47,011 nt of DNA, taken from the NCBI GenBank assembly GCA_045645785.1, contig JAZRJN010000043.1, forward strand, positions 1 through 47,011, read 5' to 3'. The position numbers and the translations under genes were made by a program. This document shows, in pieces, positions 3,812-46,576 of this stretch (position 1 is the first letter of the stretch; every line of letters begins with the position of its first letter). The notes under the pieces are model-generated. The model saw only the letters and a program-made list of their open reading frames with translations. It did no database searches and was not told the DNA's origin. The stretch comes from Candidatus Aphodosoma sp. (GTDB taxonomy: Bacteria; Bacteroidota; Bacteroidia; Bacteroidales; Paludibacteraceae).

Positions 3812-3886
3812 GACCTTAAAATTTAATAGATTAATAAATATATTTGGGAAATATAAAATCATCCTTTATTTTGTCAAAGTTAAATA

Positions 3887-11350: not shown

Positions 11351-11400
11351 AGTAGCGAGTAGCGAGTAACGAGATTAGGGGCACTCAGCTTCGCCTCGTT
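11351..11400 (+). repeat. GAGTAGC-class heptad array plus partial-complement S module
   Basis: agtagcg agtagcg agtaacg ag, then attaggggcactcagcttcgcctcgtt. Lies 13 nt upstream of the SusD start and fills the susC-susD gap. Confidence 0.9.
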
Positions 11401-14513: not shown

Positions 14514-14554
14514 AATAGCGAGTAGCGAGTAGCAAAACTCAACTCCTCCTTGTT
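14514..14554 (+). repeat. GAGTAGC-class heptad array plus S-like module
   Basis: aatagcg agtagcg agtagca, then aaactcaactcctccttgtt; lies 14 nt upstream of the SusC start codon. Confidence 0.85.
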
Positions 14555-15464: not shown

Positions 15465-15535
15465 AGTAGCGAGTAGCGAGTAACGAGACCCTCCCCCCCC
15501 TTGTTCCTTTTTCCTTGTTCCCTATTCCTTGTGAT
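15465..15535 (+). repeat. Composite element: GAGTAGC heptads + C-tract + TTGTTCC heptads
   Basis: agtagcg agtagcg agtaacg ag | accctcccccccc | ttgttcc tttttcc ttgttcc ctattcc ttgtgat. It fills the whole gap between the kinase stop (TAG at 15522-15524, inside the array) and the murQ start. Confidence 0.9.
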
Positions 15536-27100: not shown

Positions 27101-27147
27101 AATGCATAGTTACTATAGATTCTATAGACTCTATAAATTCTATAGAT
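27098..27147 (+). repeat. CATAATG heptads followed by a 9-nt array TCTATAGAY x4
   Basis: cataatg catagtt | actatagat tctatagac tctataaat tctatagat. The first unit contains the polyprenyl synthase start codon. Confidence 0.9.
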
Positions 27148-27159
27148 TTTGTATATATT

Positions 27160-29196
27160 CTACTTTAAAAGTTCTTCGAGTTGGAGCATTTCGTCGCGCC
27201 ACTGTGCAGCTTCGATGAAATCGAGCTTTTTCGCCGCTTCTTCCATACGATGACGAGCATTTTTGATTGATTTTTCTATGTCTGATTTACTCATATACTG
27301 CACCACAGGATCGGCAGCGATAGTTGGCGTTGAAAATTCTGTCGGATTTGTCAGACGTGTCGGACTTGTCGGACGAGAAACAGCCTCTCCCTCTCCTTTG
27401 ATTGGAAGAGGAGATACCGTTGTGCGAGAGGCAACTGCCTGAGGTGTTATATTGTTATCTGCATTATATTTCAATTGTTTTTCACGACGGCGAGCGGTCT
27501 CTTCTATAGTCAAACGCATCGATTCTGTAATTGTATCGGCATACATAATTGCCTTACCATTAAGATGTCGAGCTGCACGCCCAACAGTCTGAGTAAGTGA
27601 ACGATGCGAACGAAGAAAACCCTCTTTATCAGCATCGAGAATAGCCACTAACGACACCTGTGGCAAATCCAATCCTTCACGCAAAAGATTGACCCCAATG
27701 AGCACATCAAACATACCTGCACGCAATTCATCAAGAATACGAACGCGCTCAAGTGTATCAATATCAGAGTGTATATAGTTACAACGCACACCATTGCGCT
27801 CAAGATAGAGATTAAGTTCCTCAGCCATGCGCTTAGTCAAAGTCGTAACCAACACACGCTCATCCTTCTCAACTCGTAGAACAATCTCTTCCATCAAATC
27901 ATCTACCTGATTGAGTGTAGGACGCACTTCAATTATTGGGTCAAGCAAACCTGTAGGACGAATGACTTGCTCTACAATAACACCTTCCGACTTTTCCAAC
28001 TCATAATCGGCAGGTGTTGCACTAACATAGATAGCTCGCTTGATAAGTTGTTCAAACTCCTCAAATTTCAAAGGTCGGTTATCCAATGCCGCTTCAAGAC
28101 GGAAGCCATACTGCACCAAATTCTTTTTACGCGATGCATCACCGCCATACATAGCACGAATTTGTGGTACCGTAACGTGACTCTCATCAATAATCAACAA
28201 GAAGTCATCTGGAAAATAGTCTAACAAGCAGAATGGGCGTGAACCAGGAGGTCGATTATCGAAATAGCGACTATAATTCTCTACTCCAGAGCAATACCCT
28301 ACCTCTTTTATCATTTCAAGGTCGTAATTCACACGTTCCTCCAAGCGTTTTGCCTCGTATGGTTGTCCACGCTCGATAAAAGCTTGCACCTCACGACCAA
28401 GGTCAAGAGCTATTTGGTCGATAGCAGCATTGACACGCTCTTTAGTTGTAGTGAAGATATTGGCAGGATATATTTTAAACTCATCAAAGCGTTGGAGAGT
28501 ATGATTATTTACAAGGTCTAATGTTTCAATAACGTCGATTTCATCGTCCCAAAAGACTACCCGCACAATATAATCGGTATATGAAAGACAGATGTCAATA
28601 GTCTCGCCTTTTACACGAAAATTGCCACGATTGAGTTCTATATCATTACGAATGTATTGAGCATTGACAAGTTGATGCATTAAATCCTGACGAGAATAAC
28701 GCTGCCCAGCCTTCAATGTAATACAGTTCTGCGTAAAATCATCGGGGTTACCAATACCATAAAGGCAAGAAACTGACGAAACAATCACAACATCGTTGCG
28801 CCCAGAGAGTAATGCAGCAGTAGCAGATAAGCGTAAACGGTCGATTTCATCGTTAATTGCGAGGTCTTTTTCGATATATGTATCAGTGTGCGGAATATAG
28901 GCTTCTGGCTGATAATAGTCATAGTAAGAGACAAAATATTCCACTGCATTTTCAGGAAAAAAGGCTTTGAATTCGCTGAAAAGTTGAGCTGCAAGAGTTT
29001 TATTGTGTGAAAGAATAAGCGTAGGACGTCCAATATTGGCAATTACGTTTGCCATAGTGAATGTCTTGCCCGAGCCCGTAACACCAAGCAAGGTTTGAAA
29101 AGGCACACCACGACGGATACCCTCAGTCAATTCTTGGATTGCCTGAGGTTGATCACCTGTTGGAGCATAGCTTGATGTTAGTTTAAATGAATTCAT
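27160..29196 (-). CDS. uvrB: Excinuclease ABC subunit B
   Basis: 678-aa ORF with Walker A GVTGSGKTFTMANVI, helicase motifs, and a C-terminal UVR domain (...DFIEAAQWRDEMLQLEELLK). Confidence 0.95.
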   Translation of the reverse strand: MNSFKLTSSYAPTGDQPQAIQELTEGIRRGVPFQTLLGVTGSGKTFTMANVIANIGRPTLILSHNKTLAAQLFSEFKAFFPENAVEYFVSYYDYYQPEAYIPHTDTYIEKDLAINDEIDRLRLSATAALLSGRNDVVIVSSVSCLYGIGNPDDFTQNCITLKAGQRYSRQDLMHQLVNAQYIRNDIELNRGNFRVKGETIDICLSYTDYIVRVVFWDDEIDVIETLDLVNNHTLQRFDEFKIYPANIFTTTKERVNAAIDQIALDLGREVQAFIERGQPYEAKRLEERVNYDLEMIKEVGYCSGVENYSRYFDNRPPGSRPFCLLDYFPDDFLLIIDESHVTVPQIRAMYGGDASRKKNLVQYGFRLEAALDNRPLKFEEFEQLIKRAIYVSATPADYELEKSEGVIVEQVIRPTGLLDPIIEVRPTLNQVDDLMEEIVLRVEKDERVLVTTLTKRMAEELNLYLERNGVRCNYIHSDIDTLERVRILDELRAGMFDVLIGVNLLREGLDLPQVSLVAILDADKEGFLRSHRSLTQTVGRAARHLNGKAIMYADTITESMRLTIEETARRREKQLKYNADNNITPQAVASRTTVSPLPIKGEGEAVSRPTSPTRLTNPTEFSTPTIAADPVVQYMSKSDIEKSIKNARHRMEEAAKKLDFIEAAQWRDEMLQLEELLK
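27341..27376 (+). repeat. 9-nt array GTCGGAYTT-like x4 inside uvrB
   Basis: gtcggattt gtcagacgt gtcggactt gtcggacga; encodes SRPTSPTRLTNPT in the linker before the UVR domain. Confidence 0.9.
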
Positions 29197-29244
29197 AATT
29201 CATAATGCATAATTCATAATTAGCCATTCGGCACTGTAATAATT
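29194..29244 (+). repeat. CATAATK heptad array x4 plus P module (AGCCATTCGGCACTGTAATAATT)
   Basis: cataatt cataatg cataatt cataatt | agccattcggcactgtaataatt. The first unit is the uvrB start codon (cat at 29194-29196). Confidence 0.9.
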
Positions 29245-30092: not shown

Positions 30093-31502
30093 TTATTTTA
30101 CAAGATTAAGCAATAGGTCTTCAATTTGATTTTTAAGCACTTTGCGCTTACAAGTAAAATTGTTAACCATTATAGTTACGGCATATTCTTTGTCACCATA
30201 CATGACGTAGCCACTATAGCATTGTACACCACTGAGGCTACCTGATTTGAGACGGGCTTTATCCTGAAGTTTTGTGCGATAGAGAAATGAGCCGACTGTG
30301 CCTTCGCGTCCTACACGAGGAAGCGATTGATAAAAGTCGTCCCAATTAGGACTCTTGCGCATGTGTACCAATATTTGATTTAAGAAATTGGCACTATAAG
30401 CATTTTGAGCAGCAAGTCCACATCCATCATAAAGAAATAGGGCTGAGACATCAATGCCTTGTTTTTTCCAATAATCCTTAATTACTTGTATTGAAGCAGA
30501 GGATGTTGCTTCATGTGGCATCACGATATTACCAAGACGACGGAAAATATGCTCGGCATATAGATTATTGCTTTTGAAATTAGTCAAACGTATAATATCA
30601 CGCAACTTACGTGATTTATATTCATAGATAAGAGTGCGTTGTTCAGGAAAATATTCGGTTTGTACACTATAATTACCATCGACTTGCACGCCCCAATTAT
30701 TAAGCATTGTGTATAACGATTTTGCCACTACGAGCGAAGGATTAGGTATTGATGTGCGCACAACATAATTGTTGCGATTGGCAGGCATACCGCCTTGAAG
30801 ATAAAGCGCAAGACCAAGAGGTTGACAAAATGCCCAAACACTATCTTTTGGTATGGCAAGAGTCTTTACCTCGTTATAAATCGCAAGATTTGGTGTTTCG
30901 GGCCATACGCTTGTGATGGTTGGCTTAGAGCCAAAATTGCCCGAATTCATCGTGATTATAGAGGTATTGTCGTAGGCAGAAAGTCCAAAGGCAGCCGCTC
31001 CATAATGGAAACCCATATCTTCCCAAATCCATTTGACTGAGGCAGGACAACGGTCGAGACATGTAGGGTCAATAATTACATTACCCGTAATATGATTTAT
31101 ACCTTTGTGTTTAATGACTTTAACAAAATAATCGAGAAATGCACGGTCGCCAAGATGAATCGATCCAAGAGTTGGATCGGCTCCACCACGAACAATAAGG
31201 TCGCCATTGAGAATACCATTTTCGATAGTGCCATTAGTTTCGATATAAGTAGAGAATTGAAAATCACCACCAAGCAGTTCGAGTGCTGTGGCTGTGGTAA
31301 TTAACTTAGTGATAGATGCAGGTGTAGCACATTGCATCGGATTGTGAGAAGCTACTACTTCACCAGTCTTTAGGTCTAAAACTTCATAAGAAATAGTAGA
31401 ATGAGGAATGAGAGATGAGGAATGAGGAATTGCTGATTGAGCAAATCCACTTTGTTGAAATAATGTGAATAAAAAGACAAAAAGAATAAGTTTTAGTTTC
31501 AT
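30093..31502 (-). CDS. dacB: D-alanyl-D-alanine carboxypeptidase/endopeptidase (PBP4, peptidase S13)
   Basis: 469-aa ORF with signal peptide, SxxK motif PASITKLIT, and overall PBP4 length. Confidence 0.85.
   Translation of the reverse strand: MKLKLILFVFLFTLFQQSGFAQSAIPHSSSLIPHSTISYEVLDLKTGEVVASHNPMQCATPASITKLITTATALELLGGDFQFSTYIETNGTIENGILNGDLIVRGGADPTLGSIHLGDRAFLDYFVKVIKHKGINHITGNVIIDPTCLDRCPASVKWIWEDMGFHYGAAAFGLSAYDNTSIITMNSGNFGSKPTITSVWPETPNLAIYNEVKTLAIPKDSVWAFCQPLGLALYLQGGMPANRNNYVVRTSIPNPSLVVAKSLYTMLNNWGVQVDGNYSVQTEYFPEQRTLIYEYKSRKLRDIIRLTNFKSNNLYAEHIFRRLGNIVMPHEATSSASIQVIKDYWKKQGIDVSALFLYDGCGLAAQNAYSANFLNQILVHMRKSPNWDDFYQSLPRVGREGTVGSFLYRTKLQDKARLKSGSLSGVQCYSGYVMYGDKEYAVTIMVNNFTCKRKVLKNQIEDLLLNLVK
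31400..31430 (+). repeat. Heptad array AATGAGG-class x4 inside dacB
   Basis: aatgagg aatgaga gatgagg aatgagg aat; encodes AIPHSSSLIPHSTIS immediately after the predicted signal-peptide cleavage site (FAQS). Confidence 0.9.
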
Positions 31503-32121: not shown

Positions 32122-32172
32122 AGTAGCGAGTAGCAAGTAATGAGTAGCGAGATTTACTCGCTTTGCTCGTTA
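32122..32172 (+). repeat. GAGTAGC-class heptad array x4 plus S module
   Basis: agtagcg agtagca agtaatg agtagcg ag | atttactcgctttgctcgtta. AGCGAG (32146-32151) pairs with CTCGCT (32157-32162). Fills the rpoN-PAP2 gap, 5 nt from the PAP2 start. Confidence 0.9.
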
Positions 32173-34321: not shown

Positions 34322-34365
34322 AGTAGCGAGTAGCGAGTAACAAGACTCACTCGCTTCGCTCGTTT
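34322..34365 (+). repeat. GAGTAGC-class heptad array plus S module
   Basis: agtagcg agtagcg agtaaca ag | actcactcgcttcgctcgtt. GCGAGT pairs with ACTCGC. Fills the SPOR-folE gap, 14 nt from the folE start. Confidence 0.9.
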
Positions 34366-34951: not shown

Positions 34952-36682
34952 TTATATATTATTAATTTTTGAATAATATTTCATAAAACCAACACCCATT
35001 ATATTTTTAATATCCTCATCACAATAACCTCGACGGATAAGTTCCATTGTAATATTTATCAACTCGCTCGAGTCATTACATCCTAATACTCCACCGCCAC
35101 CGTCAAAATCAGAACCTATACCAATGTATTCACTTCCAACCAATTTTACCATATAATCAATATGGTCACAAATTGTATTTATATCCGCTCGGCCATCTTT
35201 AGCGAGAAAATAATTATACAAACAAACATGTATTCGACCGCCGCTCTTTGCCAATTTTACAATCAAATCATCACTCATATTACGAGGATGATCACACAAA
35301 GCCTTGGCTGAAGTATGAGTTGCTATAATAGGTTGTGTACTAAACTCTATTGCTTGTTCTATAGTCGAATCTGCCGCATGCGATACATCCACCATCATAC
35401 CCAAACGATTCATTTCACGAATCACCTCACGTCCAAAATCCGACAATCCACCATGTGTATTGCTGCCTCGTGCCGAATCACACAAATCATTATCGCCATT
35501 ATGACAGAGTGTAATATAACGTACACCCATATCATAAAATTTCTCCACATTACGAATATCGCCAGCGAGGGCAAAGCCATTCTCAAGTCCAAAACAAACA
35601 TTAACCATTTGTGGCTTAATCCCAGAAAGTTGAGTATTAAACCTTACCTTTTCAGGATATTTATCCACCTGCTCACGCAAACGCGTAAATATTTCAACCG
35701 CCACATTATGTGCCTCTTCTGCTTTTTGATTATAATCAGGCGAATCAAGTGGCACTTGTGGCAAATAAGCAACCATAAACGTACACGCCACATCGCCATC
35801 ATTCATCTTCACAAAGTCAACCTTCACTTCATCTGGATTTTGACGCACACCAAGATCAGTTGCCTCAGTCCACACCATTGGTGTATCTGTATGAGTATCA
35901 ACCACTGACGATGTACGATGAATAGCACGAGCACGACGATATACCGAAGCCTCATCCACCAACCAATTAAACAAAGCAGCCTCCTCTGGATGCTCTTTAT
36001 ACAAATTTTCAGGATGCCATTGCACGCCTATCATCTTATAACCTGGAACTTCAATAGCCTCTACAATACTATCAGGAGCAAAACCTACTGCTCTACACGA
36101 TGGAGCAATATTCCTTAGCGACTGATGATGAAACGTATTCACTTCAACAATCTGTCTACCCATCACCTGCGCAATCAACGACCCTGGTGCCAATTCCACC
36201 GCATGAGCCACCTCACTACGAGGCTGATCTCCTTGAGAATGATTCAAAAGTTGTGAGTTTTCAGTCTCGTATCTCATGTCTCGTGTCTTACCCTCTATTT
36301 GGGTATAAATATCTTGATATATATCACCTCCAAACTCAATATTCATAGCCTGCATACCACGACAAATACCCAACATAGGCATACAACGCATACGCGTTAA
36401 ACGTACCAACGCCAAGTCAAACTCATCCCTCAACGCACATGGCTTACCGCTTTGAGGCATCAATTCCTCTCCCCAATATTTTGGGTCAATATCACCACCA
36501 CCAGTCAACAACACACCATCGACCATATCAAGCAAATTATTCAAAATCTGCTCATTATCAGTCACTGGAAATACTACTGGCGTAGCACCTGCATCAATAA
36601 TACACTGCACATACGCAGGCACCAATCTATGCGCCTCTTCCCACCATCCCGAAGAAATACCTATTTTTAATTCATAATTCAT
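34952..36682 (-). CDS. Fusion protein: class I glutamine amidotransferase-like peptidase C26 (gamma-glutamyl hydrolase family) + membrane dipeptidase M19
   Basis: 576-aa ORF. The N-terminal half has MLGICRGMQAMN (C26 nucleophile elbow). The C-terminal half has VVDTHTDTP..., LCHNGDNDL and GIGSDFDG, typical of M19 dipeptidases. Its stop is 1 nt from the SPOR start. Confidence 0.85.
   Translation of the reverse strand: MNYELKIGISSGWWEEAHRLVPAYVQCIIDAGATPVVFPVTDNEQILNNLLDMVDGVLLTGGGDIDPKYWGEELMPQSGKPCALRDEFDLALVRLTRMRCMPMLGICRGMQAMNIEFGGDIYQDIYTQIEGKTRDMRYETENSQLLNHSQGDQPRSEVAHAVELAPGSLIAQVMGRQIVEVNTFHHQSLRNIAPSCRAVGFAPDSIVEAIEVPGYKMIGVQWHPENLYKEHPEEAALFNWLVDEASVYRRARAIHRTSSVVDTHTDTPMVWTEATDLGVRQNPDEVKVDFVKMNDGDVACTFMVAYLPQVPLDSPDYNQKAEEAHNVAVEIFTRLREQVDKYPEKVRFNTQLSGIKPQMVNVCFGLENGFALAGDIRNVEKFYDMGVRYITLCHNGDNDLCDSARGSNTHGGLSDFGREVIREMNRLGMMVDVSHAADSTIEQAIEFSTQPIIATHTSAKALCDHPRNMSDDLIVKLAKSGGRIHVCLYNYFLAKDGRADINTICDHIDYMVKLVGSEYIGIGSDFDGGGGVLGCNDSSELINITMELIRRGYCDEDIKNIMGVGFMKYYSKINNI
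36264..36291 (+). repeat. Heptad array GTCTCGT-class x4 inside the C26-M19 gene
   Basis: gtctcgt atctcat gtctcgt gtcttac; encodes GKTRDMRYET. Its unit is the reverse complement of the GACACGA class at 6631-6654, so it is an opposite-orientation copy of that class. Confidence 0.8.
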
Positions 36683-36737: not shown

Positions 36738-38084
<1,347 letters not shown>

Positions 38085-38178
38085 TTTTCATTTATTTTTT
38101 GAACGTAAATTTTCATTAATCACCCATTAATTCTTTATAATTTACGATTAATTTACAATAATTTATGTTCATAAAAAC

Positions 38179-39591
38179 CTACAACAACGGCGAAATCAAC
38201 CTCGCTAATGACTCCACACATCTCTTATGCCACTTCCTATGACGCCAAAGATTCACATTCAACTGACGTGAACTCTCCATATCCCTATCAAAACCCTCAA
38301 CCAAACATTTCGCTGTCTTTTCGCCATAAACAAATGCTGCAATCTCAAAATTCTGTTCATACGAACGAGTATCCATATTGGCGGTACCCACAATCGACAA
38401 ATATCCATCCACCACAATCGCCTTCGAATGCAAAAAATTATGTTGATAATAATAAACCTCAACACCAGCACGCAAAAGGCTCTCAATATAACTACGCCCT
38501 GCTGCCGCCACAATCTTCGAATCATTACGTTCAGGTATCATCACACGCACCCTCACACCTGACAAAGCAGCCGACTCCAAAGCATTCATAACAGGCTCAG
38601 GTGGCATATAATAAGGCGTGTGGATAAGTATCTCCTTTTCAGCCTTCGACACTGCCGCTACAATTCCCTGCATCACATTGCGCCAATCCGAATCTGGTCC
38701 CGAAGTAACAACCTGCACTTTCTCACCATCCTCAAAACAAGGCACCTCAGGATAATATTTCTTATCAGTAACAACCTTACCATCCACAAAACTCCAATCC
38801 ATCAAAAACGAATACTGCATCGAATGCACCGCAGGTCCCTCAACCCTCACAAACGTATCACGCCACAACCCCAATCGATTACCCCAGCGATAACGCTCCG
38901 CCAAATTCATACCCCCCGTATATGCCACTCGACCGTCAACAACCACCAATTTACGATGATTACGATAATTCAAAAGCGTGAATTTGAATATATTATCTGC
39001 CGCCAAAAACGGATGAATAAACGCACCAGCATTCTTCAACGACATACGCCACGCAATCGGCAACTTCCACGCACCAAGATAGTCATAAATCACACGCACC
39101 CTCACACCCTCACGCGCCTTACGCTCCAATAACTCCCTAAACCTATTACCAAGTTTATCATTTTCAATAATATAAAACTCTACATGAATATGCTCTTTTG
39201 CCTGCTCAATGTCATTATAAAGCGACTTAAAAGCATCAGCACCAGTCGTAAAAACATCCACTTTATTATCATCCGACAAACAAGCACCTGCCGTTTCCGT
39301 CAACAAACTCGCAACCTTACCAAAACGCTCAGGATCATCACAATAACGTGCCGAAATATTAACATTCGGAAAACGCAACTTATTGTTTATTATCTTCTTA
39401 CGACGTAAATCCTGTCCTAAAAACACATAGAGAATTATTCCAACAATCGGCAAAAGAATCATAATCATAATCCACCCAAGCGTCTTCACTGGATTACGAT
39501 TCTCCATAAGAATTGCAGTCAACACCACTAAAGCAATGTAAACATACAACGCAGTAAAACCAAAATAAACTATTTGCCAGAATAATTCCAA
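38179..39591 (-). CDS. cls: Cardiolipin synthase
   Basis: 470-aa ORF with two N-terminal TM helices and two PLD HKD motifs (NYRNHRKLVVVDG and FLHSKAIVVDG). The start codon at 39591-39589 is TTG, and no in-frame ATG exists upstream before a stop. Confidence 0.9.
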   Translation of the reverse strand: MELFWQIVYFGFTALYVYIALVVLTAILMENRNPVKTLGWIMIMILLPIVGIILYVFLGQDLRRKKIINNKLRFPNVNISARYCDDPERFGKVASLLTETAGACLSDDNKVDVFTTGADAFKSLYNDIEQAKEHIHVEFYIIENDKLGNRFRELLERKAREGVRVRVIYDYLGAWKLPIAWRMSLKNAGAFIHPFLAADNIFKFTLLNYRNHRKLVVVDGRVAYTGGMNLAERYRWGNRLGLWRDTFVRVEGPAVHSMQYSFLMDWSFVDGKVVTDKKYYPEVPCFEDGEKVQVVTSGPDSDWRNVMQGIVAAVSKAEKEILIHTPYYMPPEPVMNALESAALSGVRVRVMIPERNDSKIVAAAGRSYIESLLRAGVEVYYYQHNFLHSKAIVVDGYLSIVGTANMDTRSYEQNFEIAAFVYGEKTAKCLVEGFDRDMESSRQLNVNLWRHRKWHKRCVESLARLISPLL

Positions 39592-39596
39592 AATAT

Positions 39597-39631
39597 AATG
39601 GTTAGAGGTTAATGGTTAGAGATTAGAGTAG
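39597..39631 (+). repeat. Period-7 array AATGGTT AGAGGTT AATGGTT AGAGATT AGAGTAG
   Basis: Read directly. It spans the cls-ribD gap and the last 7 codons plus the stop of ribD (TLISNH-stop). Confidence 0.85.
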
Positions 39632-40646
39632 GAGCTTTAACACCTTTTGCATCTGGATTAACTCCAAGTTTCACAGAATTCGGTCCTTTCTCAATACGTG
39701 CCTCATCCCACAAACCAGAATCAATCACTGTCTGCAACCACTTAGCTCCCCCCTCAATTATTATTGATAAAATGTTTCGTTTCGCCAATTCTTTCAAAAT
39801 AGTCTCCACAATCTTATCATCAAAATCAATCCCCACATACTCAACATTCTCTCGCATCAACCGTTGATTGTTGACTGTTGATTGTTGACTATAAAACACT
39901 ATAGTTTTCGCCGCCGAATCAAAAATCCTATAATCCGCCGGCACACGCAAAGTCCTATCCAACAACACACGTACAGGATTTTTACCAGCCCATTTAGTTA
40001 CAGTCAAATGAGGGTCATCAAGCAAAGCCGTATTCGTAGCCACCATAATAGCATCCTCCTCCACACGCACTTGATGATTCAAAGTCTTTGTAACAGAGTT
40101 GCTTATCCTTATAGGACCATTACCCTTTTCCGTACGACACACATCAATTATACCATCCTCAGTTTCAGCCCATTTCAATATCACATACGGACGATGCTTC
40201 TCTTGCACCGCCATAAACCTACGATTAAGCCAACGAGCCTCCTCTTCCAACACACCCACAGTTACCTCAATACCAGCATCTTGAAGAATTTTCACGCCAC
40301 GACCAGCCACCTTCGGATTAGGGTCAAGCGTAGCAATCACCACTCGTTTCAACCCCTTACGCACAATCAAATCAGCACAAGGCGGAGTTTTTCCCCAATG
40401 CGAACAAGGCTCAAGCGACACATACATCGTAGCCTCTTTCAATAGCGATTCATCTCTAACAGAAGTAATTGCATTAGGCTCAGCATGTGGCTCTCCTGCA
40501 CGATGATGATACCCTTCTCCTATAATCTTACCATCATACACAATCACAGCCCCCACCATAGGATTAGGCGACGTTTGCCCCTCAGCCATAGCAGCCAACT
40601 GCAAACACCGCATCATATACAATTCATCTTGCTTTTTATCCATCAT
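39609..40646 (-). CDS. ribD: Bifunctional diaminohydroxyphosphoribosylaminopyrimidine deaminase / 5-amino-6-(5-phosphoribosylamino)uracil reductase
   Basis: 345-aa ORF with CDA zinc motifs HAEPNAI and EPCSHWGKTPPC, plus a C-terminal RibD reductase domain. Confidence 0.95.
   Translation of the reverse strand: MMDKKQDELYMMRCLQLAAMAEGQTSPNPMVGAVIVYDGKIIGEGYHHRAGEPHAEPNAITSVRDESLLKEATMYVSLEPCSHWGKTPPCADLIVRKGLKRVVIATLDPNPKVAGRGVKILQDAGIEVTVGVLEEEARWLNRRFMAVQEKHRPYVILKWAETEDGIIDVCRTEKGNGPIRISNSVTKTLNHQVRVEEDAIMVATNTALLDDPHLTVTKWAGKNPVRVLLDRTLRVPADYRIFDSAAKTIVFYSQQSTVNNQRLMRENVEYVGIDFDDKIVETILKELAKRNILSIIIEGGAKWLQTVIDSGLWDEARIEKGPNSVKLGVNPDAKGVKAPTLISNH
39863..39893 (+). repeat. Heptad array GTTGATT/GTTGACT x4 inside ribD
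   Basis: gttgatt gttgact gttgatt gttgact ata; encodes YSQQSTVNNQR in the reductase domain. Same class as the TTGACTR array at 14594-14642. Confidence 0.9.
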
Positions 40647-40667
40647 ACCAATATCCCAAATAACTTA

Positions 40668-40698
40668 CAAAGTTAGTGATTTTCAGTGAAACAACAAA
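40668..40698 (-). promoter_or_regulatory. Bacteroidota-type promoter for ribD
   Basis: On minus: TTTG (plus 40695-40698), a 19-nt spacer, then TAACTTTG (plus 40668-40675); lies 22 nt upstream of the ATG at 40646. Confidence 0.5.
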
Positions 40699-40734
40699 AG
40701 AAAAATGACATTTTTTGCTACTTTCAACAATTAA

Positions 40735-40914
40735 TTACTCTGGTTTGAGGATTTTGTTAATGTCGGCTTCGACTTTGGTGAGTTGTTTGCGGCAATCAGC
40801 TATAAGTTTTGTAGCAGTTTTTACGTTTGCTGCCAATTGGTCTATAGAGAGTTGACCGCTTTCGATTTCAGAGACTATTTGCTCTAATTGTTTGAGTTGT
40901 TCGTTGTAAGACAT
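40735..40914 (-). CDS. xseB: Exodeoxyribonuclease VII small subunit
   Basis: Below the 60-aa cut-off of the ORF track. My translation gives 59 aa: MSYNEQLKQLEQIVSEIESGQLSIDQLAANVKTATKLIADCRKQLTKVEADINKILKPE. This shows the typical XseB coiled coil, and the gene sits directly downstream of xseA. Confidence 0.85.
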   Translation of the reverse strand: MSYNEQLKQLEQIVSEIESGQLSIDQLAANVKTATKLIADCRKQLTKVEADINKILKPE

Positions 40915-40949
40915 AATTAAGAATTAAGAGTTGAGAATTGAAAACTAAA
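40915..40949 (+). repeat. Heptad array AATTAAG AATTAAG AGTTGAG AATTGAA AACTAAA
   Basis: It starts at the base next to the xseB start codon and fills most of the xseA-xseB gap. Confidence 0.85.
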
Positions 40950-40991
40950 TGTTCTAGTCACCCTATAAAAACTAGATATTTTGGAAATTTT

Positions 40992-42431
40992 TCATTTAAC
41001 TATACTATCAATGGTGCCATCAGCAAGGGTGGTAGTGATGATTTCGCCGGGTTGGAGTTGGGTAATGGAGGTTATGAGTTTGCCTTTATGAGTGGTGTAG
41101 GAGTAGCCTTTCTTGAGTAGTTGTTGCGGGTCAAGAAGTTGAAGTTTGGTTTCAAGCAGTGTTAGACGAGATTGTTGTGATTGCAAAAGGCTATTTACAG
41201 CAACAGCAAGCTGAGTGTTTTTTTGGTCGAGATATGTGCGATTTTTTACGATTAAATCGGCTGTTTTTAGTTGTAACCGATGTTGTAAGTCGGTAAGATG
41301 ATTTGCGGAGTGAGTAAGCGTGCGTTGAACAGATTGTGGTAATCGAGTAGAAAGTAACAATAAATAATTTTTCTCTTGCTCTATACGATGAATGACTGAA
41401 TTTTGCATTTTTTCTGCCATTTCATCGAGAAAATTCAATACTTCAAGTGATGACGATATAATAAATTCAGCCACTGCAGTTGGTGTTTTAAGAGCTGTAT
41501 GCGCCACCATATCGAGAATAGTTTCATCGCGATGATGACCTATACCTGCGATTATTGGCAAAGGGAAATTAGCACAACACTCGGCGAGGCGTTCACTATC
41601 GAAGGCTTGAAGGTCGGAAGTTGCTCCGCCACCACGAATAATAACAACAAGTTGAAAGTTGAAAGTTGAAAGTTGAAAGTTATTAACCCCCTCCGCTCTG
41701 CGAGCTCGTCCTCCTAAGACAGAGGGAGAATTTTTTATACCTCCCACAGAAATATTTTTGCTCACGGAACCCACAGAACACACGGAAGTTAATTTCTCGC
41801 TTTGCTCGAAATTTCTTTTAATAATATCAAGGGCAGAGAGGATGCTTTCTTCGGTTTGGGTGCCTTGCATTACGGCAGGGAAAAAAGTTACGGAATATTG
41901 AAAACCGTAAGGATTATTGTTGAGTTGGTGAAGAAAATCGGTATAACCTGCGGCTGTAGGACTTGAAATAACTGCTATACGCTGAATTGGTCGAGGGAGA
42001 GGCAATTGGCTATTTTTACCGATTAAACCGCGCTTTTTTAATCGCTCAATTATCTCAAGACGACGACGTTGAAGTTCGCCAAGAGTATAAGTTGGATCGA
42101 TATCTCTAACATTAAGACTAAGTCCATAAAGTTCATGAAACTCAACCGACACTTCGACAAGAATTTTCATCCCCACTTGGAAAGTAGAATTAGTAGCCGA
42201 TTGAAACTTTTGAAGCAAAAATCGATAAGTTGATGCCCAGATTGTTGCTCGCTGTTTGGCAATGATTTGGTCAGAATCGGGATGTTTCTCTATCAAATCT
42301 AAATAGCAATGACCTGAGTAGTTAGTCGAAATACTATTAATTTCAGCACGTACCCATAACGTTGTGGGAATCACCATGTGAAGTGATTCCTTGATTGTTT
42401 GATTTAGTCGATAGAGAGATAGAGAGTTCAT
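40992..42431 (-). CDS. xseA: Exodeoxyribonuclease VII large subunit (carries a repeat-derived insertion of about 50 aa)
   Basis: The track ORF starts at a GTG (42557) with a non-homologous-looking extension. The ATG at 42431 gives MNSLSLYRLNQTIKESL..., the usual XseA start (OB fold). Catalytic-domain motif IIRGGGATSDLQAFD and a long C-terminal coiled coil are present. Confidence 0.9.
   Translation of the reverse strand: MNSLSLYRLNQTIKESLHMVIPTTLWVRAEINSISTNYSGHCYLDLIEKHPDSDQIIAKQRATIWASTYRFLLQKFQSATNSTFQVGMKILVEVSVEFHELYGLSLNVRDIDPTYTLGELQRRRLEIIERLKKRGLIGKNSQLPLPRPIQRIAVISSPTAAGYTDFLHQLNNNPYGFQYSVTFFPAVMQGTQTEESILSALDIIKRNFEQSEKLTSVCSVGSVSKNISVGGIKNSPSVLGGRARRAEGVNNFQLSTFNFQLVVIIRGGGATSDLQAFDSERLAECCANFPLPIIAGIGHHRDETILDMVAHTALKTPTAVAEFIISSSLEVLNFLDEMAEKMQNSVIHRIEQEKNYLLLLSTRLPQSVQRTLTHSANHLTDLQHRLQLKTADLIVKNRTYLDQKNTQLAVAVNSLLQSQQSRLTLLETKLQLLDPQQLLKKGYSYTTHKGKLITSITQLQPGEIITTTLADGTIDSIVK
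41650..41808 (+). repeat. 159-nt mosaic element inside xseA: AGTTGAA x4 + C-tract + hairpin + CACGGAA-like units + S-like module
   Basis: agttgaa x4 agttatt | aaccccctcc | gctctgcgagctcgtcctcctaagacagagggag | ...ctcacggaacccacagaacacacggaag | ttaatttctcgctttgctcg. Every module recurs in intergenic copies elsewhere in the window. Confidence 0.9.
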
Positions 42432-42712
42432 TTTTTCTACGTTACTTTTGTCATTGCGCAAAAGTAACCAAAACGCTAGTGCTGTGCTTAAAAATGCTAA
42501 AGGATAGCAATAAATCCTATAGCGATTAAAACTCGGACAAACAAACTGCTTCTTCACAATTCAATACTTGCCCATAAATCTCATGCCTCGTTCATCGCCA
42601 ATATAACCTCGCCAAAAATCGCTACTTAACGGATTTATTACTACCCTTTTAATCGCATTTTTAAGACAAGGCACGATTACCATTCGGCATTATCCTTATT
42701 GTTATAAAAAAT

Positions 42713-43858
42713 TTATAATAGTATTGCACCGCCGAGGACGTCGGTATAGTTGTCGCCACAATAGAAAACTACGCTTTGTCCAGGGGTGATGGATTCGATG
42801 TCGTTTTCAAAGACAATTCTTACCAATGAGGAATGAGGAATGAGGAATGAGGAATTATCACCCCCCTCCACATTCGCTTGCGGACGCTTGAGCCGGGCGT
42901 CCCTACTTGGAAATTCGGATGCATCGACATGATAGAGGTGGGCAAGACCGGGACAGGATTTGTAGCGGACTTTTGCCATCACGGTTTGTCCGTCGATGAA
43001 ATCGGAGAATTTCATCATATTTAGGTCGTAAGCATAGCAAGTTTTTATGAGCAAATCCTCCTTACGACCGAGTACAACTTGATTCTTTTGAGCATCGATA
43101 CGAACAACATACATTGGTTCGCCAAGTGCAATGCCAAGACCTTTACGCTGACCTATAGTGTAGTTTGGGAAACCTTGATGTTTGCCCAAAACCTTACCAT
43201 TTATATCGATAAAATCGCCTTTTTTGTACTTTTTATCATAGTCAGGCACATTGGCACGAAGGAAATTGCGATAATCGTTGTCAGGGATAAAACAAATCTC
43301 TTGACTTTCGCCTTTCTTAGATAATTGTTCATAACCATTATCAAGCGCGATTTGGCGCACTTCAGTTTTAGTATATCCACCAAGAGGGAAAAGTGTACGA
43401 GAAAGATTCTCTTGAGTCAAACGCCAGAGGAAATAGGATTGATCCTTGTGCTCGTCGGCTCCTTTACGAATGAAATATCGACCTTCTGGTGTCTTCTCGA
43501 TTTGAGCATAATGACCTGTTGCAATATAAAAACAGCCCAATTCATCGGCAAATTTCTGCAACATACCCCACTTAATATTAGAATTGCACTGCACACAAGG
43601 ATTAGGCGTGCGACCATGAAGATATTCGTCGATGAAATTGCAGATAACAGAATCATGAAACTCACGACGCATATCGAGAGTGTGATGCTCAAAACCCATA
43701 TCTGCAGCCATCTGACGAGCATCAGATACAGCAGGAGAATCGAGAGTTAACTGAGTGAAAGTTACACCTTTAAGTTCGTAACCTTTGCGACGGAGTTCGA
43801 TGGCAGCAACGGAACTATCGATGCCACCACTCATAGCCATAAGTATTTTATTTTTCAT
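42713..43858 (-). CDS. mnmA: tRNA 2-thiouridine(34) synthase (carries a repeat-derived insertion of about 30 aa)
   Basis: 381-aa ORF with PP-loop AMSGGIDSSVAA, conserved CVQCN, and C-terminal ...ITPGQSVVFY. Confidence 0.95.
   Translation of the reverse strand: MKNKILMAMSGGIDSSVAAIELRRKGYELKGVTFTQLTLDSPAVSDARQMAADMGFEHHTLDMRREFHDSVICNFIDEYLHGRTPNPCVQCNSNIKWGMLQKFADELGCFYIATGHYAQIEKTPEGRYFIRKGADEHKDQSYFLWRLTQENLSRTLFPLGGYTKTEVRQIALDNGYEQLSKKGESQEICFIPDNDYRNFLRANVPDYDKKYKKGDFIDINGKVLGKHQGFPNYTIGQRKGLGIALGEPMYVVRIDAQKNQVVLGRKEDLLIKTCYAYDLNMMKFSDFIDGQTVMAKVRYKSCPGLAHLYHVDASEFPSRDARLKRPQANVEGGDNSSFLIPHSSLVRIVFENDIESITPGQSVVFYCGDNYTDVLGGAILL
42825..42912 (+). repeat. 88-nt mosaic element inside mnmA: AATGAGG x4 + C-tract + GC hairpin
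   Basis: aatgagg x4 aattatc | acccccctcc | acattcgctt GCGGACGC ttgagccgg GCGTCC ctacttgg; encodes PSRDARLKRPQANVEGGDNSSFLIPHSS. Confidence 0.9.
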
Positions 43859-43872
43859 ATATTTAGATTGTT

Positions 43873-43955
43873 AGTAGTGAGTAACAAGTAGCAAAATTAC
43901 CATTCGGAATTGTAATTTTTCTCACGGATATTCTGAAACACTTCGCTTTACAGAA
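43873..43955 (+). repeat. Mosaic element in the mnmA leader: GAGTAGC-class heptads + P module + CACGGA/S-like modules
   Basis: agtagtg agtaaca agtagca | ttaccattcggaattgtaattttt | ctcacggatattctgaaacacttcgctttacag; starts 15 nt upstream of the mnmA ATG. Confidence 0.85.
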
Positions 43956-44210: not shown

Positions 44211-46310
44211 ATGAAAAAATTATTTTTAACAGTAGCAACAGCAGCTATGATGTTTGCATGTACAAACAATGCGGGTAAAAATCCGTTTTTGACAGAATGG
44301 AACACTCCAGAAGGTGTACCTCCATTTGAACAAATCAAAGCAGAGCACTATTTGCCTGCATTTGAAGAGGGTATCAAACAACAACAAGCCGAAATTGAGG
44401 CAATTATCAACAATCCAGAGGCTCCAACATTCGAGAATACTCTTGAGGCAATGGATAAATCTGGTCGTTTGTTGTCGAAAGTGGCTTTGGTATTCTTCAA
44501 TATCACAGAAAGCGATGGTTCTGAAGAATTAACTAAAGTTCAAGAAGTTGTATTGCCATTGGTAAGCGCACATAGCGACAATATCTACATGGACGCACGT
44601 TTGTTTGAACGCGTGAAAGCTGTGTATGAAGGTCGTGACGCAATGAACTACACAGTAGAACAAAATCGTTTGTTAGACAAAGTTTACAATGCATTCGTTC
44701 GCAACGGTATCTCATTGCCAGAAGATAAACAAGCACGTATGCGTGAAATCAATGCTGAACTTTCGACATTGCAACAAAAATTCGGCAACAATTTGTTGGC
44801 AGAAACAAATGCTTTCAAACTTGTGCTTGAATCGGAAGAAGATTTAGCAGGTTTGCCTGAAGCAGTGCGCACAGCAGCAGCTGAAGCAGCAAAAGCTGAA
44901 GGTTTGGAAGGTAAATGGGTGATTGGTTTGCAAAATCCAAGCCGTATTCCTTTCTTGCAATACAGCGAACGCCGCGACTTGCGCGAAAAAGTTTACAAAG
45001 CATACATCGAACGTGGTAACAACGGCAACGAAAACGACAACAAAGAAATCGTGTTGCAAATCATGAAATTGCGTATCGAGAAAGCTAACTTGCTCGGTTT
45101 TGAAACATCGGCAGACTTTATCCTCGACGATACAATGGCTAAAAAATCAGACGTTGTGAACTCATTCTTGCTTGATATCTTCAAAGCTGCTAATGAAAAA
45201 GCAAAAGCAGAATTGGCTGAAATGCAAGCAATTGCAGACCGCGAAGGTAACGGTGTGAAAGTAGAAGCTTGGGACTGGGATTACTACACTGAAAAAGTAC
45301 GTCAAGAAAAATATGCTATGAGCGAAGACGAAATCAAACCATACTTCCAAATGGAAAACGTTCGCGCAGGTATGTTTGCATTGGCTAACCGCCTCTATGG
45401 TTTGAACTTCGAAAAATTGAACGATATGCCATTGTTCAACCCAGAAGCAGAATGCTTTAAAGTGACAGACAAAGATGGCTCTTTGATTGGTATTTTCTAT
45501 ACAGACTACTACCCACGCGCATCAAAACGCGGTGGTGCATGGATGACAAACTTCCGTGAACAATATATCAACGAAGAAGGTAAAGACGTTCGTCCAGTGG
45601 TTATCAATATTGGTAACTTCACAAAACCAACAGCTACTACTCCATCATTGCTCACATTGGATGAAACAGAGACTATGTTCCACGAATTCGGTCACGGCTT
45701 GCACGGTTTGTTGGCAAAAGCTAACTATGTATCTGTAAGCGGTACTAACGTGGCACGCGACTTCGTTGAGTTGCCATCACAAATCATGGAAAACTGGGCA
45801 TTCGAACCAGAAGTGCTTGCAATGTATGCAAAACACTATCAAACAGGCGAATTGATTCCTAATGAAATCATCGAAAAAATTAATGCTTCATCTACATTCA
45901 ATCAAGGATTTATGACTACAGAATTGACTGCAGCAGCTATCCTTGACATGAACTGGCACGACCTCAAATCGATAGAAGGCATCACTGACCCTATCGCATT
46001 TGAAAAAGAGATGATGGACAAAATTGGCTTGATTCCTGAAATCGCTCCTCGTTATCGTACAACTTACTTCAACCACATTTGGGCAGGCGGTTATAGCGCT
46101 GGTTATTATAGCTATTTGTGGGCAGAAGTGTTGGATAAAGATGCTTACGCATTGTTCAAAGAAAAAGGTATCTTCGATCAAGAAACAGCACAAAAATTCC
46201 GCACATTGCTCGAAAAAGGTGGTACTGAAGACCCTATGAAATTGTATCGCGACTTCCGTGGTGCAGAGCCAAATCCAGAGGCTATGCTCATTGGACGCGG
46301 TTTAAAATAG
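44211..46310 (+). CDS. dcp: Peptidyl-dipeptidase Dcp (M3 family zinc metallopeptidase), secreted/lipoprotein
   Basis: 699-aa ORF with signal/lipobox MKKLFLTVATAAMMFAC, zinc motif HEFGHGLH, and M3 family length and architecture. Confidence 0.9.
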   Translation: MKKLFLTVATAAMMFACTNNAGKNPFLTEWNTPEGVPPFEQIKAEHYLPAFEEGIKQQQAEIEAIINNPEAPTFENTLEAMDKSGRLLSKVALVFFNITESDGSEELTKVQEVVLPLVSAHSDNIYMDARLFERVKAVYEGRDAMNYTVEQNRLLDKVYNAFVRNGISLPEDKQARMREINAELSTLQQKFGNNLLAETNAFKLVLESEEDLAGLPEAVRTAAAEAAKAEGLEGKWVIGLQNPSRIPFLQYSERRDLREKVYKAYIERGNNGNENDNKEIVLQIMKLRIEKANLLGFETSADFILDDTMAKKSDVVNSFLLDIFKAANEKAKAELAEMQAIADREGNGVKVEAWDWDYYTEKVRQEKYAMSEDEIKPYFQMENVRAGMFALANRLYGLNFEKLNDMPLFNPEAECFKVTDKDGSLIGIFYTDYYPRASKRGGAWMTNFREQYINEEGKDVRPVVINIGNFTKPTATTPSLLTLDETETMFHEFGHGLHGLLAKANYVSVSGTNVARDFVELPSQIMENWAFEPEVLAMYAKHYQTGELIPNEIIEKINASSTFNQGFMTTELTAAAILDMNWHDLKSIEGITDPIAFEKEMMDKIGLIPEIAPRYRTTYFNHIWAGGYSAGYYSYLWAEVLDKDAYALFKEKGIFDQETAQKFRTLLEKGGTEDPMKLYRDFRGAEPNPEAMLIGRGLK

Positions 46311-46576
46311 TAGCGAGTAGCAAGATAAGAGTAACAAGACTTTACTCGCTCCGCTCGTTTTAGATTTTGATATGCGGACTTGAGTGCTCCGCATATCAAC
46401 AAAATTTTGAAAGTTGAGAGGTTAAAGTACCATTTGGCATTATAAATTCGCACACGGAATACACGGAACTCACGGAAATTTTCACCTCCCATAAACATAA
46501 ATAATACTAATATTTTCCACCTTTCGATTCGCTCTTTTGCTATCGCAAAAATCGCTCTACGGATAACACGGAAGCC
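46309..46576 (+). repeat. 268-nt intergenic region composed almost entirely of concatenated repeat modules
   Basis: The modules in order are: GAGTAGC-class heptads (46309-46338, starting inside the dcp stop codon); S module tttactcgctccgctcgtttt; a 12-bp hairpin; ttgaaag ttgagag gttaaag; P module taccatttggcattataaatt; acacggaat acacggaac tcacggaaa; ttttcacctccc; and acacggaag just before the next ATG. Confidence 0.9.
46367..46399 (+). terminator. Strong stem-loop downstream of dcp (probable terminator)
   Basis: Perfect 12-bp stem TTGATATGCGGA-cttgagtgc-TCCGCATATCAA. Only a weak T-run (caaaatttt) follows. Confidence 0.55.

Follow-up and report, generated by a model that had tools for sequence, protein, structure and literature searches.

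An exonuclease VII loop in Candidatus Aphodosoma as a probable patchwork of short repeat modules

A 47,011-nt stretch of Candidatus Aphodosoma DNA (the window, meaning this whole stretch at its full length) encodes the large subunit of exonuclease VII (XseA), and this protein is interrupted by a repeat-rich segment that keeps the reading frame. The locus raises the question of what such a segment is and how an enzyme came to carry it. An earlier note on the sequence had described it as a single 159-nt mosaic element inserted into xseA. According to the comparison of orthologs presented here, at least four short repeat modules with a tendency towards non-B DNA structures have probably accumulated as a patchwork at a single position of xseA, both permissive and unstable. 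In the predicted structure this position is the loop joining a helix to the strand ahead of the catalytic RGGG motif. Members of the same repeat families are present in intergenic DNA and in other genes.

The open reading frame (ORF) at 40992-42431 (minus strand) is xseA, as indicated by the Pfam domains Exonuc_VII_L (6.9e-74) and tRNA_anti_2; the N-terminus of the protein is an OB fold (Pfam search). The coding sequence comprises 479 residues and starts with MNSLSLY, a start methionine shared by the orthologs, and a longer ORF beginning with GTG, up to 42557, is probably not used. The xseB gene lies directly downstream. Residues D165, R266, H299 and D302, which we take to be the equivalents of the E. 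coli catalytic residues, are invariant in 32 of 32 aligned orthologs. The description of the product as an essential-pathway enzyme has to be corrected, as exonuclease VII is not essential in E. coli. A protein search found relatives of this xseA in metagenome-assembled genomes (MAGs) of Paludibacteraceae, and a genome scan led to the genus Candidatus Aphodosoma, with MAGs from ruminant and other guts.

Residues 204-258 of XseA (55 residues, 165 nt) are located between the anchors ...SALDI and FQLVVIIRGGG. The outgroup comprised 69 other Bacteroidales species, one of them a Paludibacter MAG and one a further MAG of the Paludibacteraceae. In 69 of 69 loci the anchors SALDxI and F-D-V-V-V-I-I-R-G-G stand exactly 21 nt (7 residues) apart, and the alignment with E. 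coli XseA (PDB 8TXR) is interrupted at this very point (query 206/261 versus chain 194/200). Since no segment of similar length is present in the repeat-free orthologs, the observation of an insertion of roughly 50 extra residues, made in the earlier note, stands. In the case of 18 Aphodosoma loci the interval measures 9, 30, 36, 60, 93, 105, 120, 123, 135 or 210 nt; all these lengths, and the 165 nt of the window, are multiples of 3, and every variant is in frame and free of stop codons. The ancestral site comprised 7 residues and was remodelled only in Candidatus Aphodosoma. In the AlphaFold2 model, calculated from the ortholog alignment, residues 214-256 form a coil with predicted local distance difference test (pLDDT) values below 50 (mean ~25), with flanks at ~80; on one side lies the helix 193-217 and on the other the strand 261-265, ahead of RGGG. 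The model therefore gives the answer to the structural question put in that note, a disordered surface loop, as a supported prediction rather than a demonstration, because its overall confidence is modest (mean pLDDT 69, predicted template modelling score 0.43).

The variation of this site was followed in 32 aligned clusters of orthologous proteins and in the DNA of the 18 species-level Aphodosoma loci (designated L001, L002 and so on). At least ten architectures occupy the same codon position of xseA, all of them in frame, and the rest of the protein is 64-88 % identical among the relatives. Almost nothing (NINNFQL) is present in L001 and L002; heptads only are found in L004, L014, L017 and L018, and in L009 they are split by a FIAKGSKTDG module. 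A block of GCGAG-type units, nonamers and linker is followed by CTCACTC or AATTCTC heptads in L003, L008, L005 and L010, by a GC-rich module and AACTTTC heptads in the window, and by a variant GC-rich module and split heptads in L007. Other left halves, with the GC-rich module and CCTCATT heptads, are observed in L006, L015, L016, L012 and L013. The close relatives L003 and L008 (~87-88 % protein identity by BLASTP) thus have the same left half as the window, no triplex motif (the GC-rich module, described below) and other heptads, and the distant relatives L006 and L012 have the triplex motif with a different left half. Some modules are therefore common to close relatives while others differ, and orthologs of the same genus carry none, one, two or more modules in varied combinations, which is not what a single inserted 159-nt element would leave.

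Read on the coding strand, the insert consists, in order, of GAGCAAAGCGAG, the 9-nt units TTCCGTGTG TTCTGTGGG TTCCGTGAG, an A/T-rich linker, TTCTCCCTCTGTCTTAGGAGGACGAGCTCGCAGAGCGGAGGGGGTTAAT, and AACTTTC x 4.7; the encoded peptides include SVCSVGSVSK and AEGVNNFQLSTFNFQLVVIIR. All parts of the insert are described for the minus strand. At its left end the "S-like" motif of the earlier description (CTCGCTTTGCTCG on the plus strand, 41796-41808) proves to be two degenerate GCGAG-type heptads on the coding strand, with the peptide EQSEK. The S-like pattern CTCGCTYYGCTCG has 4 matches in the window (0.06 expected), and the other three copies are intergenic (32157, 34350 and 46345), opposite TAGCGAG heptads. 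The 9-nt tandem array follows (41761-41787, three units found by pattern search, peptide SVCSVGSVS); its pattern has 2 matches in the window, at 41763-41787 and in the non-coding 46453-46477, against 0 expected, and the mnmA-xseA spacer of L005 holds a 27-nt copy. The A/T-rich linker (41734-41760), with an extra nonamer CCCACAGAA recognised as a direct repeat (41743-41751) and a GGGAGG run, is common to L003, L005, L007, L008 and L010. Next comes the GC-rich module (41681-41733), followed by the heptad array (41649-41681, peptide NFQLSTFNFQL), for which Tandem Repeats Finder gives AAGTTGA x 4.7 with 100 % matches and a score of 66, in agreement with the four perfect heptads noticed before. In this orientation only, the array has no stop codon in any of the three phases. 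A part of it, the 12 nt AACTTTCAACTT, is present even in the shortest allele (L001) and is therefore shared coding sequence and not insert.

The idea that intergenic-type repeat DNA resides in frame in xseA is borne out by these copies outside genes together with the lengths in multiples of 3, but the distribution of the copies is wider than had been proposed. Non-coding copies of the S-like motif, of degenerate AGTTGAR heptads (46402-46428) and of the 9-nt array do lie at 46345-46477 (plus strand, downstream of the M3 peptidase gene), within the gap 46309-46576 to which all of them had been assigned; they are not confined to it, in view of the S-like copies at 32157 and 34350 and a non-coding array at 40922. 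AGTTGAR arrays give 8 overlapping matches at 4 loci of the window (0.04 expected), and the related arrays at 37170 and 37781 sit inside another gene. Nor does every module have a non-coding copy in the window: the GC-rich hairpin and C-tract have none, the only significant match to the family model being the one in xseA, and the hairpin of the gap (ATATGCGGAC...GTCCGCATAT) is unrelated to the GC-rich module. The nature of the GC-rich module, a triplex-type repeat found far beyond the Aphodosoma genome, had not been recognised in the earlier note.

Two observations concern the surroundings of these modules. The S-like copies (32157, 34350, 41796, 46345) and all AGTTGAR-type arrays (37170-41683) are on the plus strand, and nearly all nearby genes are on the minus strand, so these repeats have one orientation relative to transcription and perhaps to replication. 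A native part of xseA, 41607-41623 (ATSDLQAF; coding strand CAACTTCCGACCTTCAA), is 82 % identical to the heptad tract 45 nt away, which could be chance or a seed for the array.

Heptad arrays are a property of the whole genus. In 308 kb of Aphodosoma DNA there are 46 period-7 arrays per 100 kb, about ten times the density of 4.3 per 100 kb in 1.15 Mb of outgroup DNA, and no other repeat period is as strongly enriched; both the tandem 7-nt units and the lineage-specific over-representation that characterise heptanucleotide repeats are found here. The window contains about two dozen arrays, most of them intergenic and often 13-20 nt upstream of a start codon. Some are in frame, namely in mnmA, in ribD (39863-39890), in the gene of an ABC2 membrane protein (37168-37205 and 37775-37845), and in the C26/M19 peptidase (36264-36288) and S13 peptidase (31399-31430) genes. 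Arrays in coding sequence always run in the sole orientation that is stop-free in all phases. At the positions of the in-gene arrays the orthologs have other unit types or lengths: in ribD the same site holds GTTGACT, CATTGTG or GTAATCT arrays in different species, just as TAGCGAG, TGCACAA or AAGTGTT arrays follow the M3 peptidase gene. Such entirely different units at orthologous sites indicate that the arrays are replaced as wholes. Changes of copy number are also seen. At the xseA site, L001 has AACTTTCAACTT (1.7 units) versus 4.7 units in L004, a difference of three units, and the in silico loss of three units from the window allele gives the junction peptide NNFQLVVIIRGGG, identical to that of L001.

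The window offers further repeats of this kind. TAGCGAG-type heptads at 11351-11373, 14516-14533, 15465-15487, 32122-32151 and 34322-34339 are placed 13-20 nt upstream of the starts of minus-strand genes, often facing a degenerate copy in inverted orientation (CTCGCTTYGCTCG), so that a hairpin results between genes of the same direction; in their position they resemble the TAACTGA repeats upstream of start codons in Beggiatoaceae (PMC4679880). A recurrent intergenic module, (T)ACCATTCGGCATTRTAAT, is found at 29222-29240, 42680-42697, 43896-43915 and 46428-46446, usually directly after a heptad array. Period 9 is also enriched in Aphodosoma (18.5 versus 7.6 per 100 kb), and tandem 9-nt arrays include CTATAGATT x 4 between genes and TGTCGGACG x 4 in an ORF (27113-27148 and 27340-27375). 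In mnmA there is a second patchwork (42825-42915, minus strand) with AATGAGG x 4.4 heptads (NSSFLIPHSSL) preceded by the GC-rich module GTAGGGACGCCCGGCTCAAGCGTCCGCAAGCGAATGTGGAGGGGGGTGATAA, which is homologous to a module in the xseA insert of L007; the protein has 368 residues in L001 and 397 in L006, with other modules at the same site. The peptide GTRHAVSD(Q)P appears in C-terminal extensions of some XseA proteins, in the XseA loop of P0061 and in mnmA of L006 (XseA orthologs P0026, P0043, P0061 and P0092), so that a single DNA module serves as coding sequence in different genes as well as at the ends of genes.

The GC-rich module belongs to a family of its own. A scan of the Aphodosoma loci for C-run/G-run hairpins yielded a family of ~52 nt with the layout TTCCTCCCCT-loop-AGGGGAGG-T-[stem-GNA-stem]-GGAGGGGTTAAA. 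A covariance model (R1) built from four intergenic copies replaced an alignment made with MAFFT and RNAalifold, in which the second hairpin was misaligned. R1 matches the insert with 37.7 bits (E 3e-11 to 5e-12). Full-length copies number 19 in the 287 kb searched from Aphodosoma, and the 1.15 Mb from the outgroup yielded none. In the alignment, which is fitted to the covariance model and hence favours structure, 98.4 % of the cells at the base pairs of the family are paired, and compensatory changes are seen in 46 cells versus 12.8 +/- 4.7 in shuffles, with 3 or fewer in slid controls. Pairing reaches 98 % in helix 1, where 3 of 8 pairs show compensatory changes, and 100 % in the second hairpin, in which three of the four pairs covary; the stems of this hairpin differ in the raw sequences themselves (CCC/GGG, GCC/GGC, CCAC/GTGG, GTCC/GGAC, GGTC/GACC, GCTC/GAGC). 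No known Rfam family was found, either for the window at gathering thresholds or in an E-value search of four loci with intact copies.

The 3' tail of the motif mirrors the purine arm and is no direct repeat of it: a G in the arm faces a G in the tail, and an A faces either A or T. Examples of arm and tail are AGGGGAGG / GGAGGGGT, AGGGGGAG / GAGGGGGT, AAGGAGGGG / GGGGTGGTT, AGGGGAGA / AGAGGGGTT and AAAGGGGG / GGGGGATTT, and at least eight such types change in concert. Among the 30 informative copies, i.e. those with a purine arm lacking the GGGGAGG core of the search pattern, 15 have a tail that follows the mirror code at a consistency of at least 87.5 %, versus 4 with a direct repeat; in 1000 shuffles the mean was 2.6 and the maximum 8. 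As read from the sequence, this code is the pairing scheme of a putative antiparallel purine-motif triplex of the class II layout, with complementary pyrimidine and purine arms and a mirroring third arm (G.G-C, A.A-T, T.A-T). The connectors depart from the class II motif, for which both are short: loop 1 has 3-7 nt, and the second connector has 9-14 nt and forms its own hairpin of 3-6 bp, containing GCGAAGC in some copies. Holder et al. 2015 (PMC4666352) state that RNA does not form triplexes of the purine motif, an indication that the structure is one of DNA. In the same paper the loops of the ITxF search are 1-6 nt (0-10 nt in Hoyne et al. 2000, which it cites), so that this search would miss the Aphodosoma-type motif, since its second loop is a hairpin beyond the 1-6-nt limit.

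Copies of the motif inside Aphodosoma ORFs are located in xseA, in the ABC2 membrane protein gene of L005 and in the C26/M19 peptidase gene of L009; intergenic copies are present in L003, L004, L008, L012 and L014. An intact member of the family is found at 8653-8704 of L012. Spacers in this genus vary greatly in length. The M3 peptidase-mnmA spacer of L004 (6866-8196) extends over 1.3 kb and has three copies of the motif; in the window it is ~350 nt. In L008 an intact motif (6093-6139) lies downstream of the M3 peptidase gene, and in the orthologous place of the window (46402-46428), made of degenerate AGTTGAR heptads, the motif flank and tail alone are recognisable, which may reflect replacement of a motif by an array.

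Outside the genus, a scan of metagenomes with an exact 25-base pattern of one subfamily found at least 120 contigs, with a GC content of 31 to 68 % and, in many contigs, several copies (both among the matches listed). In five contigs that were checked the motif is in frame in housekeeping genes, RadA-like, TsaD, class I/II aminotransferase, QueA and MnmA, whose Pfam domains extend on both sides of it. One repeat family is thus found both between genes and in unrelated ORFs with the frame kept, as in the Rickettsia palindromic elements (RPE). Viral contigs gave only 3 hits, hence the motif is not phage-borne. Among the matches listed, period-7 arrays stand beside few of 138 copies (4 downstream, 3 upstream), so that the link with heptads is a feature of Aphodosoma-like genomes and not of the whole family. 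A candidate partner gene, DUF559, was considered and set aside. Among the matches listed, six ORFs with this domain (in contigs L179, L100, L122, L136, L147 and L164) all lie within ~700 nt of a motif copy; only 7 of 127 copies, however, are near such an ORF, and the domain is absent from 1.46 Mb of Bacteroidales xseA loci, including 308 kb from Aphodosoma, which leaves it as a lead. In L179 (about 3300-4400), DUF559 (PF04480, E 8e-31) is inside a continuous, unannotated stop-free frame of 1388 codons; a peptide encoded by the motif immediately precedes the domain, and motif-like peptides rich in G, S and P follow. A broader proposal, which we put forward tentatively and consider more likely wrong than right, is that the hairpin-bridged motif (CCTCCCCT-loop-AGGGGAGG-mini-hairpin-GGAGGGGT and variants) would be an undescribed mobile or self-propagating family that crosses phyla, colonises in frame the housekeeping genes of XseA, MnmA, RadA, TsaD, QueA and others, is maybe mobilised by a DUF559 (Vsr-like) protein, seeds or attracts the heptads in Aphodosoma and makes hypervariable loops of core enzymes.

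The probable course of events at xseA can be outlined as follows. The triplex motif and the tandem arrays would arise and turn over by events at the DNA level: stalled polymerases, slippage, and recombination or ectopic copying that involves different copies of a repeat. Selection would remove only versions that break the frame or introduce a stop, and the surviving DNA would be translated as a disordered loop without function. The loop may be seen as ground for the accretion and turnover of repeats that pervade Aphodosoma.

Several points weigh against this account. In the window copy of the motif, the pyrimidine arm CTCCCTCT (41721-41728) and the purine arm AGGAGGAC (41708-41715), separated by loop 1 (41716-41720), form 2 non-standard pairs, so that the first stem is mismatched, and only 6 of 8 positions of the tail GAGGGGGT (41686-41693) fit the mirror code; the mini-hairpin GCTC-GCA-GAGC occupies 41695-41705. 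The entire insert, considered as a candidate structured element, folds as single-stranded DNA no more stably than its shuffles (z 0.21, by nearest-neighbour folding, which cannot model triplexes) and is thus not a structured element as a unit. A mismatched stem, a partly fitting tail and no excess folding energy would suit a late, decaying stage of the motif. The triplex fold is read from covariation in the sequence, and triplex formation in vivo and polymerase stalling are putative; translation of the insert is likewise deduced from the conservation of the frame. With about two dozen heptad arrays to one triplex motif in the window, the motif cannot account for the arrays in general. An enzyme that would mobilise the modules was not identified in Aphodosoma, and the spread of variants by recombination between species could make independent events seem more numerous than they are.

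The alternative closest to the original description is a single composite mobile element of ~159 nt, resembling a miniature inverted-repeat transposable element (MITE) or an RPE, which entered xseA by one in-frame transposition. The triplex motif and heptads do occur together elsewhere, in the xseA-xseB spacer of L014, in L009, in L012 and in the ABC2 gene of L005, and a related motif with heptads is present in mnmA of the window. The insert has, however, neither the terminal inverted repeats nor the target-site duplication of a MITE. The one candidate for such a duplication, a 13-nt flanking direct repeat (41639-41651 / 41819-41831), encodes the native L-D-I-I / L-V-V-I-I and is kept in insert-free orthologs. 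The left half without the triplex motif in L003 and L008, the opposite situation in L006 and L012, and the different order of modules in the xseA copy and in the 46309-46576 gap also speak against a unit, and we regard one transposition as unlikely. Possible but quite improbable is a role of the heptad tract as a phase-variation switch of exonuclease VII, in line with the slip-based switching of the earlier note; this would make xseA a contingency locus modulating repair or mutation rate. The 7-nt unit inside the ORF is not a multiple of 3, copy number changes over evolutionary time, and the simulated gain or loss of 1 or 2 units does truncate XseA, as a stop then appears at residues 274-298, ahead of RGGG or shortly behind it; the effect of a one-heptad slip was therefore rightly foreseen. 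The switch itself lacks support, as the tract of 4.7 units is short in comparison with long hypermutable tracts, the frame is intact in each of the 18 species-level loci and the 32 aligned clusters, and identical arrays are found in genes for which a switch would be of no evident use (mnmA, ribD and peptidase genes). No on/off pair of alleles and no out-of-frame xseA allele was seen, although split genes would escape the protein search.

It could also be argued that the loop has a function as a hypervariable surface of XseA under positive selection, evading for instance a phage or plasmid inhibitor, with the repeats as raw material. Its extreme diversity of length and sequence at one surface position, in a protein that is otherwise 64-88 % identical, would be expected in such a case. 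The peptides, however, are dictated by DNA repeat units which also exist as non-coding copies, the same phenomenon is observed in several unrelated housekeeping genes, the loop is predicted to be disordered, and the shortest alleles nearly lack it; selection for the loop has, in our opinion, a slim chance of being the explanation. Removal of the segment after transcription or translation (by bypass, or in the manner of an intein or intron), giving a mature XseA without it, is hardly credible. Apart from GC-rich hairpins at the spot, nothing direct speaks for removal, the conservation of an open frame in all variants would be needless if the segment were removed, and neither an Rfam family nor intron or intein features were detected. 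The patchwork of repeat modules at a permissive loop is thus the explanation that we prefer.

If so, structure-forming DNA of a selfish or mutational nature can inhabit the core enzymes of a free-living gut genus of Bacteroidales, beyond Rickettsia, and one loop of a repair nuclease has been rebuilt in at least ten ways between sister species. The locus would link three separate literatures, those on intrastrand triplex motifs, heptanucleotide repeats and in-frame repeat insertions, and defines a form of the triplex motif to which existing triplex finders would be blind. In practice, such segments may serve as natural markers of permissive loops and as loci for strain typing of Aphodosoma, and they may be a source of length variation in gene calls from metagenomes. 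The ingredients, i.e. in-frame selfish repeats (RPE), intrastrand triplex motifs and heptanucleotide repeats, are already known. In the searchable literature we found neither their combination nor the hairpin-bridged triplex variant, and no report of in-frame copies of this variant in the core genes of unrelated contigs or of one XseA loop rebuilt from species to species; nothing relevant appeared either on short tandemly repeated repetitive (STRR) sequences with heptanucleotides or on DUF559 with hairpins.

Bacterial interspersed mosaic elements (BIMEs) of enterobacteria are extragenic mosaics built on repetitive extragenic palindromic (REP) sequences recognised by RAYT transposases. The Aphodosoma repeats are similar in the mosaic combination of few short motifs, palindromes included, at gene ends; unlike in BIMEs, neither a REP sequence nor a RAYT gene was seen here. 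Comparable to the heptad arrays are the STRR sequences of cyanobacteria. Heptanucleotide repeats were surveyed by Mrazek et al. 2007 (as cited in PMC4679880), and TAACTGA repeats are reported from Beggiatoaceae, Cyanobacteria and some Bacteroidetes (PMC4679880). With such 7-nt long simple-sequence repeats the arrays described here share tandem heptamers of 2-7 units, over-representation in few lineages, a position mostly just upstream of starts or after stops, and occasional presence in ORFs in the stop-free orientation. They differ in that many unit sequences coexist and replace each other at orthologous sites, and in that arrays are common in core genes and physically linked to triplex motifs.

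In respect to the triplex motif, the closest relatives in form are the potential intrastrand triplex (PIT) elements and TMECO (BoxC), which are abundant in bacteria, form triplexes in vitro and mark loci rearranged between E. coli strains (PMC4666352). Common features are the class II layout, with a 5' pyrimidine arm, a purine arm and a 3' purine-rich reverse-Hoogsteen arm, the G/C-rich composition, arms of ~8-9 nt, many copies, mostly intergenic and often in tandem or inverted pairs, and neighbourhoods rearranged between close relatives. In contrast to PIT/TMECO, the second "loop" is a mini-hairpin of 9-12 nt, whose stem covaries and whose own loop is GNA or GNRA-like. The arms have other sequences (CCTCCCCT/AGGGGAGG/GGAGGGGT), Bacteroidales are among the hosts, as are contigs with a GC content of 31-68 %, and copies are found in frame inside genes, followed in Aphodosoma by heptad arrays. 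A repeat of Methanomicrobiaceae with G-quadruplex and C-tract sequences, which as single-stranded DNA forms a hairpin, an antiparallel triplex or a G-quadruplex in vitro (circular dichroism and S1 nuclease; PMC8044849), is also GC-rich with two G-rich arms and one C-rich arm, but has the opposite arm order (class I-like), no mini-hairpin, archaeal hosts and no reported copies in genes. The RPE of Rickettsia (Ogata et al. 2000) are, according to PMC10969869, short selfish repeats found between genes and in frame in unrelated housekeeping genes, translated with survival of the host protein, and in this the Aphodosoma repeats would be alike. In view of hosts and composition, homology of the motif to the Rickettsia RPE families is unlikely. 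RPE, as presented in that source, are discrete units of ~150 bp with a conserved encoded peptide, whereas here the segment is modular and its combinations vary between species at one site.

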